From an uncultured Actinomycetes bacterium (lineage in GTDB: Bacteria; Actinomycetota; UBA4738; HRBIN12), in contig CAVTOC010000005.1 in the NCBI GenBank assembly GCA_963736335.1, positions 506,428 through 570,427 of the forward strand: 64,000 bases of DNA, in the 5' to 3' direction. The position numbers were made by a program, and so were the translations under genes. Each line of letters opens with the position of its first letter. Position 1 is the stretch's first letter. The notes under the pieces are model-generated. The model was not told where the DNA came from. It did no database searches and was given only the letters and a program-made list of their open reading frames with translations. Below, piece by piece: positions 6,609 to 10,017 of this stretch.

Positions 6609-7229
6609 TCATTCGGTCCCGTACAACCGGTCCCCGAAATCGCCGAGGCCCGGCAGGATGTACGCGTTCGCGTTGAGCTGACGGTCGAGCGCGCCCGCCA
6701 CGATCGGGACGTCCGGATGATCGGCCTCCATGCGGGCGATACCCTCAGGTGCCGCCACCACGCAGACGAACGTGACTCCTCGCGGTCCGGCCGCCTTCAC
6801 GTACGCGGCCGCGGCGGAGCCCGAGCCGCCCGTGGCGAGCATAGGATCGAGCAGCAGCGCGTGGCGTCCGCCGAGCGGGGGGAGCTTCGCGTAGTAGTCG
6901 CGTGGCTCGTGCGTCTCCTCGTCACGCTCCATGCCCAGGTAGCCCACCATCGTGTCGGGATACAGGTCGGTGACGGCGTCGAGCAATCCGAGACCGGCTC
7001 GGAGGACGGGGATCGCGACCAGGTCGACGCCGAGGGCGGAGCCTGTGAACGGCTCCAGCGGCGTTCGGACCTCGGCGGGCACGACGGGGAGGTCCCGGGT
7101 GGCCTCGACCACCAGGATCGCGCCCAGCCGCCGGGTCAAGGACCTGAACTCCACAGGTCCGGTTCGCTCATCGCGCAGCCGCGTGAGCAGATCGGCGGCG
7201 AGCGGATGGTCGACGACGGTGAGCGACAT
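6609..7229 (-). CDS. upp: Uracil phosphoribosyltransferase
   Basis: VDHPL, LRD, PVLRAGLG, RDEET, LLDPMLATGGS, YILPGLGDFGDRLYGT. Confidence 0.95.
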   Translation of the reverse strand: MSLTVVDHPLAADLLTRLRDERTGPVEFRSLTRRLGAILVVEATRDLPVVPAEVRTPLEPFTGSALGVDLVAIPVLRAGLGLLDAVTDLYPDTMVGYLGMERDEETHEPRDYYAKLPPLGGRHALLLDPMLATGGSGSAAAAYVKAAGPRGVTFVCVVAAPEGIARMEADHPDVPIVAGALDRQLNANAYILPGLGDFGDRLYGTE

Positions 7230-7306
7230 GTGGTGCATCTTACGTATCGCCCGTATCGTCGACTCCCCGATGCAGGGCCGGTCGCTCGACCGCCGGCGAC
7301 GTTCGA

Positions 7307-7969
7307 CTAGGCAAGAAGTCGGAGGACGGCTTCGAGTCCTCGAGACTCCAGGGCGTGCTGTGCCGGGAGGATCAGCGTGGGGATGCCGATCGATGCCGCA
7401 CCGCCATCGTGTGAAGCTCGATCGCCAACCATGAGCGCCTCGCATGCTTCGATGTCCAACGCGTCGAGTGCCAGAGTGAACATCCGCGGATCCGGTTTCT
7501 GGATGCCGTGCTCGAAGGACAACACGTAGGTGTCGATGAGGTGCCCGACCCCGTCCTCGGCGAGGTCCACGCGCAGGTCGAAGTGGATATCGCTGACGAG
7601 TGCGATCTTGACGCCGAGTTCTTTGATCGCGGCCAGCACCTGGGGGACGTCTGGATAGAGCGGATGACTCGCGGGATCGAAGTCGAGGAGATAGAGAGCC
7701 TCCGCGAGTTCGGTGTCGAGCCCTCCCCGATCGAACCAGAGCATCATCGAAGAGCGGTTGAGCTCGGCCGACCGATCTGCTCCCAGCTCAGCTTCCAGGA
7801 CTTCTGGACGCTCACCGGCTACGGTCAGACCGGCAACGGCGACCTCCACCGTGTGGGGATCCGCTGCGCGGCCGAGCGACTCGAGGGCGCGACGGATCCA
7901 CCATTCGAGCGGGGGGTCCCACGCCAGCGTGCCTCGCCAATCGAACAGCACCGCACGGTAGCGAGCCAT
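7307..7969 (-). CDS. HAD-superfamily hydrolase
   Basis: VLFDWRGTL (motif I variant), LVSD, QKPDPRMF, MVGDRASHDG. Confidence 0.85.
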   Translation of the reverse strand: MARYRAVLFDWRGTLAWDPPLEWWIRRALESLGRAADPHTVEVAVAGLTVAGERPEVLEAELGADRSAELNRSSMMLWFDRGGLDTELAEALYLLDFDPASHPLYPDVPQVLAAIKELGVKIALVSDIHFDLRVDLAEDGVGHLIDTYVLSFEHGIQKPDPRMFTLALDALDIEACEALMVGDRASHDGGAASIGIPTLILPAQHALESRGLEAVLRLLA

Positions 7970-8009
7970 GAACGGATCCTCCCACGGACCGAGGGTTCGT
8001 TGACGAGGC

Positions 8010-8039
8010 TTGTCACTCTCCGCCGTTCGGTGGCAGGAT
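8010..8039 (+). promoter_or_regulatory. Putative promoter of the leader peptide-DAHP synthase transcript
   Basis: TTGTCA-18 nt-CAGGAT, ending 9 nt before the leader ATG. Confidence 0.45.
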
Positions 8040-8048
8040 GACCGCCAC

Positions 8049-8102
8049 ATGCAGGACTTCTTCTACGGCCGGTTTACCTACGACGGGCGCGGCCCGGCGT
8101 AG
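8049..8102 (+). CDS. Phe/Tyr-rich attenuator leader peptide (MQDFFYGRFTYDGRGPA*)
   Basis: 17 codons, 3 Phe + 2 Tyr including tandem TTC TTC TAC; immediately followed by a terminator hairpin and the DAHP synthase gene. Confidence 0.75.
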   Translation: MQDFFYGRFTYDGRGPA

Positions 8103-8129
8103 TCGCCTACCGTAGACGAGCGGACAGCG

Positions 8130-8155
8130 ACCCCGGGCCGGACCCGGGGTTTTCT
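8130..8155 (+). terminator. Intrinsic terminator of the attenuator
   Basis: ACCCCGGG-CCGGA-CCCGGGGT followed by TTTCT, lying upstream of (not after) the downstream gene. Confidence 0.8.
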
Positions 8156-8208
8156 CATCCCTGGGTGGCCCGTGGTCCCGGGATATGCCAAGAGAAACGG
8201 GGAGCGAC

Positions 8209-9228
8209 ATGGTCGTCGTGATGAAGGCAGACGCAACCGACGCGGACATCGAGGCCGTGGCGGAGAAGGTGCGCGCCGCGGGCGGCGAGGCATTCGTCTC
8301 GCGTGGGACGGTCCACACGATCATCGGTCTGGTCGGGGACACCGCCAGGTTCCAGACGATCCCGTTCAAGCAGATGCCGGGCGTCGATCACGTGATCCAG
8401 GTCGGCAAGCCTTACAAGATGGTCGCGCGCGACCTGCACCCCGAGACGACGACCGTGAAGGTGGGGACCACGCCCGTCGGCCGCGACTCGTTCACGATCA
8501 TCGCGGGGCCGTGCGCGGTGGAGTCGGAGGAGCAGGCGTTCACGGCGACGCGGGCGGCCAAGGCCGCGGGCGCCACGATCCTGCGCGGCGACATCTACAA
8601 GCCGCGGACCTCTCCCTACTCGTTCCAGGGACTCGGCGAACGGGGGTTGGAGATCCTGGGGGAGTGTCGCCGCGACACGGGCCTGCCGATCATCGTGGAG
8701 GTCGTCGACGTGTCGCAGGTGGAGGGCGTCGCCGAGGTGGCCGACTGCATCCGGGTGGGCACGCGCAACGCGCAGAACTTCGAGCTCCTGAAGGAGGTCG
8801 GCCAGACCCACAAGCCCGTGATGCTGAAGCGCGGTCTGGCCATGACGATCGACGAGTGGCTCCAGGCCGCCGAGTACGTGGCGCAGCGCGGGAACTCGGA
8901 GATCATCCTGTGCGAACGCGGCATCCGGACGTTCGAGCCCTCGACCCGCAACACGCTCGACCTGGCGGGGATGGCGGTCGCGCAATCCGAGACGCACCTG
9001 CCGGTGATCGTCGACCCGTCCCACGCCGTCGGGAAGCACGACCTGGTCGCGCCGATGGCGCTCGCGTCGGTCGCGGCCGGCGCCGACGGCGTGATGATCG
9101 ACGTGCATCCCGATCCGGAGCAGGCGCTCTGCGACGGACCGCAGGCGCTCACGCCGGACGAGATGGTGTTGCTCGGTCACGAGCTGGAGGCGGTGGCGGC
9201 GGCCGTCGGCCGTCCCGTCAACCGGTGA
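8209..9228 (+). CDS. aroF: 3-deoxy-7-phosphoheptulonate (DAHP) synthase, type I-beta with N-terminal ACT-like regulatory domain
   Basis: MVVVMK N-terminal domain, IAGPCAVES, KPRTSPYSFQGLG, RNAQNF, LKRG, LCERGIRTFE, VDPSH, CDGPQ. Confidence 0.93.
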   Translation: MVVVMKADATDADIEAVAEKVRAAGGEAFVSRGTVHTIIGLVGDTARFQTIPFKQMPGVDHVIQVGKPYKMVARDLHPETTTVKVGTTPVGRDSFTIIAGPCAVESEEQAFTATRAAKAAGATILRGDIYKPRTSPYSFQGLGERGLEILGECRRDTGLPIIVEVVDVSQVEGVAEVADCIRVGTRNAQNFELLKEVGQTHKPVMLKRGLAMTIDEWLQAAEYVAQRGNSEIILCERGIRTFEPSTRNTLDLAGMAVAQSETHLPVIVDPSHAVGKHDLVAPMALASVAAGADGVMIDVHPDPEQALCDGPQALTPDEMVLLGHELEAVAAAVGRPVNR

Positions 9229-9233
9229 GGGCG

Positions 9234-10017
9234 TCACACCGCGACGTCGGGCGTGAGCTCGACGATGTCCGCGGTCTTGCGCCACCGTGTCAGCGACTCG
9301 GCGGGGGCGCCGGCGCGGCTCTTCCGCTTGTCGACCAGGAGCTTCGCCGCCTCTTCCCACTCCGGGCCTTCGAGCCGTCGCTGCGCGGCGTAGAACTCCT
9401 CGAGCTCGGTGTCGCGCAGCTTCCGCCGGGTGATCACCAGGAGCTGGTTGGCGTCGGGCACGCCGGGGATGGTCTGCTCGTCGGGACCCGGCTCCTTCTG
9501 CGACAGGACGTAGATCTTCCCGTTCTTGTAGGCGAACCATGCCGGCACCGTCCGGCGGTGCCCGTTCGGCGACTCGGTCCCGACCCAGATCACGTCGGAC
9601 TTCTTCAAACCGTCCTCGGTCTCCTTGGGGAGCTTGGCGGGCGCCGACTGGACGTAGACGGGCACCTCGATCTCGCCCACGATCTCGCCGTTCAGGATGA
9701 ACGACGCGACGAACGAGCCGGTCTCGTCGATCACGGCGTCCTCGACGGTGTCCACCTCGGTGGTGAGGTCCATGGCGCCGGCCATACGGCGAGGCTCTGG
9801 GCCCCATCGATAGATCGTGCGCCCGGACGGCCCGATCAGCCGGATCTCTTCGCTGACGAATCCGGTCGGCACCTTCCAGGCTCGGAACAGCACGAACGGA
9901 AGCGCCGGGCCGGGTTGGCCGACCAGGTAGATGCCGTCGCTGGCCTTGTTCGCCGTACGCCTCCCAGACGCGCTCGTCAACGACGGCGGCGGCGACCAGC
10001 TCTCCGATGTTGCTCAT
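9234..10017 (-). CDS. Hypothetical two-domain protein; C-terminal half resembles pyridoxamine-oxidase-like split barrel; frameshift near 9950
   Basis: ORF 9234..9980 with good coding bias. N-terminus MSNIGELVAAAVVDERVW in adjacent frame from ATG 10017; VIWVGT..GHRRTVPAWFAY..GKIYV. Confidence 0.55.

Follow-up and report, generated by a model that had tools for sequence, protein, structure and literature searches.

The stretch analysed here (the window) comprises 64,000 nt of contig CAVTOC010000005.1 in assembly GCA_963736335.1, from an uncultured soil actinobacterium. Within it, a spacer at 7970-8208 separates two diverging genes: a minus-strand gene for a HAD-family hydrolase with its start at 7969, and a plus-strand gene at 8209-9228 for 3-deoxy-D-arabino-heptulosonate 7-phosphate (DAHP) synthase, the enzyme at the entry of the shikimate pathway. 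We describe the leader that precedes the latter gene, which is very probably a ribosome-mediated transcription attenuator of the trpL/pheL type controlling the one gene for this enzyme that was detected in the genome.

We examined the identity of the downstream gene. Its product displayed a PF18152 match (E 5e-20) ahead of a PF00793 DAHP_synth_1 barrel (E 1e-78), scored 465 bits against NCBIfam NF006421 (cut-off 335), and aligned end to end over residues 1-338 with PDB 1rzm/3pg9 (E 4e-100), which we take to be the enzyme from Thermotoga maritima. These matches agree with a preliminary description of this DNA, which had named the gene as a type I-beta DAHP synthase, and the protein can be assigned as such, with an N-terminal ferredoxin-like domain (FXD) whose allosteric role is presumed. 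In the genome, which is 87% complete, we found a single PF00793 match and no PF01474 match indicative of a type II DAHP synthase; a control search with PF01474 did match the type II enzyme of Corynebacterium glutamicum. The gene is thus the only one for a DAHP synthase detected in this genome. The features identified from the promoter region through the gene are as follows.

8010..8015, + strand: candidate -35 box TTGTCA; TTG is invariant in alignment A1
8034..8039, + strand: candidate -10 box CAGGAT, 18 nt past the -35 box and 9 nt ahead of the ATG
8049..8102, + strand: leader open reading frame (ORF) of 17 codons, MQDFFYGRFTYDGRGPA*, conserved in 30/30 loci, with no Shine-Dalgarno sequence ahead
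8058..8073, + strand: helix A, 5' strand, spanning codons 4-9 including FFY; pairs with 8105-8120 in the minimum free energy (MFE) fold
8078..8102, + strand: hairpin B (regions 1:2), CUACG.CGGGC / GCCCG.CGUAG, ending on the stop codon, -15.5 kcal/mol
8090..8106, + strand: region 2, 5' strand of the predicted antiterminator, pairing with 8127-8140
8105..8120, + strand: helix C, 3' strand closing the leader hairpin onto helix A
8127..8140, + strand: region 3, common to the antiterminator (3' strand) and the terminator (5' arm)
8129..8156, + strand: predicted intrinsic terminator with a 9-bp G+C-rich stem, a 5-nt loop and a UUUUCUC tail
8159..8165, + strand: region 5, CCCUGGG, which can pair with region 4 (8143-8149) once region 3 is occupied; putative role
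8199..8204, + strand: Shine-Dalgarno sequence GGGGAG of the DAHP synthase gene, read from the sequence; GGAGG-like in most relatives
8209..9228, + strand: type I-beta DAHP synthase with an N-terminal ferredoxin-like regulatory domain, from Pfam, NCBIfam and PDB matches

The leader ORF runs from an ATG at 8049 to a TAG at 8100-8102, and its pathway codons are clustered; Phe or Tyr accounts for five of the 17 codons and Trp for none, as had been read directly from the sequence in the preliminary description. In the -10 box, the A at position 2 and the AT at positions 5-6 are invariant in A1, and a TTGnnn-N17/18-nAnnnT pattern ends 7-11 nt (mode 9) upstream of the ATG in 97 of 98 distinct leaders, which were picked from the fetched loci by stop-codon context and terminator motif. 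The transcript would start at about 8044-8047; one RNA-library contig begins at 8044, which is a weak hint only. As a promoter 7-11 nt from the ATG leaves no room for a Shine-Dalgarno sequence, translation of the ORF would be leaderless or nearly so, in line with the earlier suggestion that the leader is near-leaderless. Leaderless messages are common in Actinobacteria. That the ORF is translated at all we infer from the conservation of its reading frame.

The aromatic content of the ORF is confined to one frame. In the 98 distinct leaders, the mean aromatic fraction is 0.314, compared to 0.022 when the same DNA is read in its other two frames and 0.038 in the DAHP synthase protein. Phe and Tyr are present in all 98 and Trp in 78. 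Rare codons are over-represented, with TTT accounting for 18 of 89 Phe codons in the leaders and none of 206 in the DAHP synthase genes, and TAT for 8 of 44 Tyr codons compared to 3% in the genes (loci L001-L030). This over-use may heighten the sensitivity to tRNA charging, or may reflect constraints of RNA structure. From codon 13 on, conservation is at the nucleotide level and not at the amino-acid level. Among 28 distinct leaders, GGG encodes Gly-5 in 27 (enzyme-gene background 31%), CCG encodes Pro-2 in all 28 (background 56%) and TAG is the stop codon in 27, while the codon between Gly-5 and Pro-2 specifies G, S, C, R or D and is always xxC. The bases conserved in this way at the 3' end of the ORF are exactly those of regions 1 and 2. 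One half of the leader ORF thus appears to be read as protein and the other half as RNA.

We then compared the locus among relatives. An enzyme search of the genomes of 41 relatives matched 38 and returned 30 loci, with protein identities of 64-100%. All 30 loci harbour an ATG-initiated ORF rich in F, Y and W that ends 84-108 nt upstream of the enzyme start. The ORF has 17 codons in 26 loci, 18 in three and 20 in one, so that the differences are multiples of three, and in every case it ends in G-x-x-P-A/G with a fixed stop position. Aligning orthologous upstream regions had been proposed in the preliminary description as a check, and the alignment bore out the proposal, with an F/Y-rich small ORF at 30/30 loci and covarying stems. 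The presence of the same ORF, hairpins and terminator in all 30 relatives, together with the covariation described below, is more than chance would give. A scan of named-species genomes gave 355 candidate stretches, 305 of which encode a relative. The best 80 were inspected, and all were found in metagenome-assembled genomes (MAGs) titled uncultured Actinomycetes, Actinomycetota, Actinobacteria or 'bacterium'. An ORF with at least three F, Y or W codons and a terminator hairpin were both present in 76 of these 80. Locus L127 retains the ORF with only two aromatic codons. L095 (the same place as L168) and L124 retain the promoter and the terminator hairpin, with the aromatic ORF and region 1 deleted, and L098 lacks the whole leader element.

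A covariance model of 109 positions, R1, was built from the 30 leaders. In the genome of origin it gave one real match, at 110 bits, and all other matches had E values of at least 0.13. In a class-level sample, R1 matched 122 of 151 genomes, distributed over families f1 (107/115), f6 (6/6), f2 (3/3), f3 (2/2), f5 (1/1), f8 (2/13) and f7 (0/10). In a phylum-level sample, 28 of 151 genomes were matched with E no greater than 0.01, and 21 of these lie outside the class. Thirteen of the outside-class loci were inspected. Six, from families f16 and f18, possess a different aromatic ORF and, after it, a hairpin with a U-run, and their DAHP synthases share 60-64% identity with that of the window; their leaders, of which MRRYFWFYGTSGTPGAGAC and MKTNNGWYFFFGAFTRPAGVRLR are examples, keep the aromatic run and not the sequence. 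The other seven were false positives. The secondary hits of R1 were rejected as false positives: L164, L169, L171, L172, L156 and L157 correspond to the 3' ends of protein-coding genes that have terminators, L154 falls within a gene for DAHP synthase, and L159, L160, L162 and L163 resemble terminator hairpins but have no DAHP synthase in their vicinity. Separately, the assembly of one relative carries two differing copies of the leader, the second of which lies at one end of a short contig (L167, G055:C62:2842-2944) and has a 16-codon ORF, MRETFGFWFYGGRCPA. This second copy could be a paralogue, or could come from another strain binned into the same genome. Alignments A1 and A2 include rows L007 (G008) and L027 (G029) from unpublished genomes, and the tallies of the enzyme search and of the class and phylum samples include the unpublished genomes G008, G029, G037, G056, G109, G110 and G115; none of the conclusions depends on these genomes.

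The secondary structure of the leader was examined in detail. The MFE fold of 8040-8165 consists of a long imperfect hairpin at 8058-8120, which contains codons 4-17, and a hairpin at 8129-8151 followed by UUUUCUC. The upstream helix pairing 8062-68 with 8110-16, noted in the preliminary description, belongs to this fold. The leader hairpin (A:C plus B) was calculated at -30.9 kcal/mol. The terminator hairpin, also noted earlier, was found as a predicted 9-bp stem (8129-8137 with 8143-8151, loop 8138-8142, -17.9 kcal/mol) with its U-run, an element that recurs in all rows of the alignment. An alternative helix between 8090-8106 and 8127-8140, at -31.2 kcal/mol, contains the antiterminator pairs 8091-97:8133-39 and 8102-06:8127-31 that had been given correctly before, and adds C8090-G8140 and G8099-C8132. 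The antiterminator and the terminator share 8129-8137 and are therefore mutually exclusive, and compensatory changes were found. The competing upstream hairpin at 8058-8120, which holds codons 4-17 and the stop codon, also covaries. A hairpin between regions 4 and 5 was calculated at -12.5 kcal/mol. When 7000-9500 was searched against Rfam with cmscan at E values up to 10, the only match was a spurious one to an lncRNA (E 5.6); Phe_leader, Trp_leader and the other 4227 models gave no real match to the leader.

Covariation was evaluated by imposing the terminated structure on alignment A2 and counting the cells that form standard pairs, in comparison with partners slid by 1-3 columns. In the terminated structure, 89.2% of the cells pair, compared to 35-53% when slid, and the covariation score was reached by 0 of 500 shuffles. 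In helix A:C (8058-8073 with 8105-8120), 7 of 9 counted pairs change on both sides; UCUACGG:CCGUAGA in the window is replaced elsewhere by GGCUAC:GUAGCC or UUCGGC:GCCGAA. When strands were exchanged among sequences, helix A with its own C gave -15.5 kcal/mol and with the C of another sequence -12.6 kcal/mol, and none of 5000 permutations was as good. In hairpin B, 92.8% of the cells pair; in the terminator all of them do, and 7 of its 9 pairs show no variation. As for the antiterminator, 92.8% of the cells pair, compared to 25-54% when slid. Its upper helix is nearly invariant, and in its lower helix 2 of 5 pairs change on both sides. In addition, the nucleotide immediately upstream of CCCGG in region 2 covaries with the one immediately downstream of CCCCGGG in region 3 (Fisher p 1.5e-4), the combinations in 94 distinct leaders being GC 61, AC 16, AT 11, GT 4, GA 1 and CG 1. 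In 10 of the 11 leaders with A-T, the first base of region 4 is likewise A, as competition between regions 2 and 4 for region 3 would predict. RNAalifold, applied to a MAFFT alignment, recovered only the hairpin B core and the terminator with almost no covariation, and was set aside because the position of the variable A:C helix is offset by one alignment column from lineage to lineage.

We next modelled the effects of ribosome position on folding, taking the leading edge of the ribosome as 13 nt and blocking 28 nt around each A-site position. In transcripts cut just before the 3' arm of the terminator, the terminator 5' arm was paired upstream with a mean probability of 0.79-0.91 when the A site was 16-7 codons before the stop, and of 0.28-0.51 when it was 6-0 codons before the stop. 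MFE folds of the 30 full-length leaders contained the terminator in 29 cases when no ribosome was placed. With the A site at -13 to -8 the number was 12-20, and from -7 to 0 it was 29-30; a ribosome at or near the stop left the terminator in all 30. With the A site on Y11, the terminator stayed in the equilibrium fold of 26 of 30 leaders. In these models the shifts go in the direction that attenuation predicts, and the switch would not be decided at equilibrium. The conserved aromatic codons at -7 and -6 would, under the footprint assumed, lie at the edge of the effective window.

Six soil metatranscriptome runs contain part of the stretch, and the contigs of four were examined. A 587-nt contig (X13) with 97% identity covers 8044-8630 without a break, and a contig from X20 bridges 8110-8309. 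Leader, terminator and gene of close relatives thus occur together in RNA-library contigs. The contigs end at different positions (8044, 8033 and 8004), and a gap in contig cover over 7600-7998 carries no evidential weight.

These results can be accommodated in the following model. Transcription would begin a few bases upstream of the ATG at 8049, producing a leaderless or nearly leaderless ORF. When Phe-tRNA and Tyr-tRNA are ample, the ribosome would reach the TAG at 8100-8102 and cover region 2 (8090-8106). With region 2 masked, region 3 (8127-8140) would pair with region 4 (8143-8151), and transcription would terminate at the U-run near 8150-8156. In the absence of translation, region 2 would be held in the leader hairpin (A:C plus B, 8058-8120), and transcription would likewise terminate. 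A shortage of charged aromatic tRNA would make the ribosome stall, at F4 F5 Y6, F9 and perhaps Y11 in this species, and at the W-F-F-Y run of codons 8-11 in most relatives. The stalled ribosome would open helix A together with the 5' half of hairpin B, releasing region 2 to pair with region 3 (-31.2 kcal/mol, compared to -17.9 kcal/mol for the terminator), so that no terminator forms and the DAHP synthase gene is transcribed. The 1:2/2:3/3:4 logic proposed in the preliminary description is supported, at the level of sequence, by the conserved ORF, the covariation and the folding shifts. Its proposal of dual sensing of Phe and Tyr may hold for this species and a few close relatives; it does not extend to the family, in which 78 of 98 leaders carry a Trp codon.

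Several results weigh against transcription attenuation. Variation is almost absent from the terminator, the hairpin B core and the upper helix of the antiterminator, so that their pairing rests on complementarity and nucleotide-level conservation. CCCGGG is palindromic, and any two copies of it can pair. The sequences are related and not independent, so the shuffle counts and p-values overstate the support. The folding z-score of the window sequence alone is -1.76, and 10 of 200 shuffles fold equally well. The U-run is short (UUUUCUC) and interrupted in many relatives, and a consensus scan of 7800-8400, with rules demanding TTGACA/TATAAT and five T in eight after a stem, called neither promoter nor terminator; those rules do not fit the signals of this organism. 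In the cut transcript without a ribosome, the terminator 5' arm is already paired upstream (mean 0.57; 0.91 in the window), which would make default termination hinge on the kinetics of folding. At equilibrium, a stall flips the MFE fold in only 10-18 of 30 leaders, and in none with the A site on the best-conserved aromatic codons, -7 and -6, given a 13-nt leading edge. Three of the 80 inspected loci are without the aromatic ORF, and the hairpin retained in L095 and L124 is hard to square with an efficient terminator. As for the RNA-library contigs, they cannot show transcript ends, strand or level, and DNA may be present in such libraries.

Taking these points into account, we considered other explanations for the leader. 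Sensing of aromatic tRNA charging by the ORF might be coupled to a translational output, through exposure of the ribosome-binding site, or to mRNA stability, with 8129-8151 not acting as an efficient terminator. Such an output would be consistent with the weak U-run and with the two natural variants that keep the hairpin after loss of the ORF. In addition, a region 5 of the form CCC(C/U)GGG starts 9-12 nt past region 4 in 50 of 97 distinct leaders, and the Shine-Dalgarno sequence is more open when region 4 is free (mean 0.47 compared to 0.35, in 23 of 30 leaders). In the window, however, accessibility does not differ (0.38 and 0.41), and sequestration of the Shine-Dalgarno sequence, a weak trend over the 30 leaders and absent here, was rejected. 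Moreover, the ribosome-binding site lies about 50 nt past the hairpin in poorly conserved sequence, whereas the hairpin with its U-run is the best-conserved element, a T-run following it in every row of A2. We regard this explanation as unlikely.

The nucleotide-level conservation in the 3' half of the ORF and the strength of the hairpins would also be found in a structured RNA, such as a riboswitch or a protein- or tRNA-binding leader, in which the ORF is incidental. An incidental ORF would not be expected to keep its ATG, frame and stop at 30/30 loci with indels in multiples of three only, nor to preserve aromatic residues through synonymous codons with the aromatic excess in one frame alone; there is also no Rfam family match, and the distant versions keep the aromatic run rather than the sequence. 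This makes a structured RNA very unlikely. We find it hardly credible that the small ORF encodes a functional micropeptide and that the hairpin merely ends its transcript. The ORF is indeed conserved and has its own promoter and terminator, but only its aromatic character and the RNA-constrained positions are conserved while other positions vary freely. Furthermore, it is always located directly upstream of the same biosynthetic gene, for which no second promoter was seen, and an RNA-library contig continues from the leader into the gene.

Returning to attenuation, the set of amino acids sensed seems to differ within the family. Codon 8 (8070-8072) is CGG (Arg) in the window and in three near-identical relatives (L002, L004 and L005), whereas relatives of the same genus, such as L003, have TGG at this position. 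This single T-to-C difference removes the only Trp codon of the leader, and the Trp codons carried by most relatives thus appear to have been lost in this species. Another candidate leader of this kind was found outside the window in the same genome, at G000:C5:798055-798260 on the minus strand (L173:2960-3200). It consists of an ORF with W-T-W, MRMHGMTWTWREGSRSPVPTRS, and a G+C-rich hairpin with a U-run before the gene for anthranilate synthase component I (trpE). Its promoter, TTGACG...CACAAT, ends 9 nt ahead of the ATG, the same layout as in the DAHP synthase leader. One relative has a WW leader before trpE, and the two trpE leaders suggest that leader-peptide control is a habit of this lineage. 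A scan of the genome for leaderless small ORFs followed by a terminator gave eight candidates, of which only the DAHP synthase and trpE leaders were convincing. The same scan also yielded two small leaderless-type ORFs rich in Leu, Val and Ile with hairpins downstream, MSTNLLFERSVLVLIR at G000:C4:16353-16403 (+) and MRVRTWTSQVIVLRR at G000:C6:1179110-1179157 (-).

We further considered a more tentative idea, to which we give a small chance, that the DAHP synthase leader goes beyond a two-state switch, with a stall gating both transcription and translation via 8159-8165, and with the sensed set retuned and the ORF at times lost. If so, the 4:5 pairing would form only in the antiterminated fold, so that readthrough transcripts would also have an open ribosome-binding site, and the Trp-loss and ORF-loss variants would represent a natural series of specificity and loss.

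The preliminary description knew of no attenuator for an actinobacterial DAHP synthase. This is contradicted by the aroR leader of C. glutamicum, which contains F-Y-F, lies before aroF and was predicted from RNA-seq (Mentz et al. 2013, PMC4046766). Readthrough from aroR into aroF is reported to rise on limitation of Phe, and not of Tyr, via stalling (Neshat et al. 2014, as summarised in the review PMC11802643), and aroR/aroF is also mentioned in PMC3890552. The two systems are alike in that a short leader ORF with Phe and Tyr codons lies upstream of a DAHP synthase gene in an actinobacterium. On the other hand, the present leader belongs to a lineage of uncultured soil Actinomycetota known only as MAGs, most members of its family also carry Trp codons, and only one DAHP synthase was detected here whereas C. 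glutamicum has two, the second being of type II. The aroF enzyme of C. glutamicum is of type I-alpha, in contrast to the type I-beta enzyme with a ferredoxin-like domain described here. The likeness to aroR is one of arrangement and reported behaviour; in the phylum sample, in which the membership of Corynebacterium is uncertain, R1 gave weak or no matches outside the class of the window and two other families.

As in the trpL and pheL attenuators of E. coli, which are named in PMC11802643, the ORF overlaps region 1, the stop codon would place the ribosome on region 2, and a 2:3 antiterminator is opposed to a 3:4 terminator with a U-run. The present leader differs in that two amino acids would be sensed by a single leader, and three in most relatives, in that the ORF is near-leaderless instead of having a Shine-Dalgarno sequence, and in that the target is the entry enzyme of the common pathway and not a branch operon. 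A full-text literature search, with supplementary files and subscription journals outside its reach, found no description of the present leader family, and three papers (Seliverstov 2005, PMC1262725; Naville 2010, PMC2965389; Korolev 2016, PMC4833913) contain no aro or DAHP terms. The mechanism is a textbook one with an actinobacterial precedent, and the leader is a new, well-conserved example that would not surprise a specialist.

At the single entry to the shikimate pathway in a widespread group of uncultured soil Actinomycetota, no transcriptional control other than this leader is visible, and the leader would add to the control exerted by the presumed allosteric domain of the DAHP synthase. 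The near-leaderless ORF, the rare TTT and TAT codons and the variants with loss of Trp codons or of the ORF provide material for examining the coupling of leaderless translation to transcription. In addition, model R1 offers annotators a defined RNA family that is absent from Rfam, and flags the DAHP synthase gene of these as yet unculturable organisms as one controlled by aromatic amino acids.

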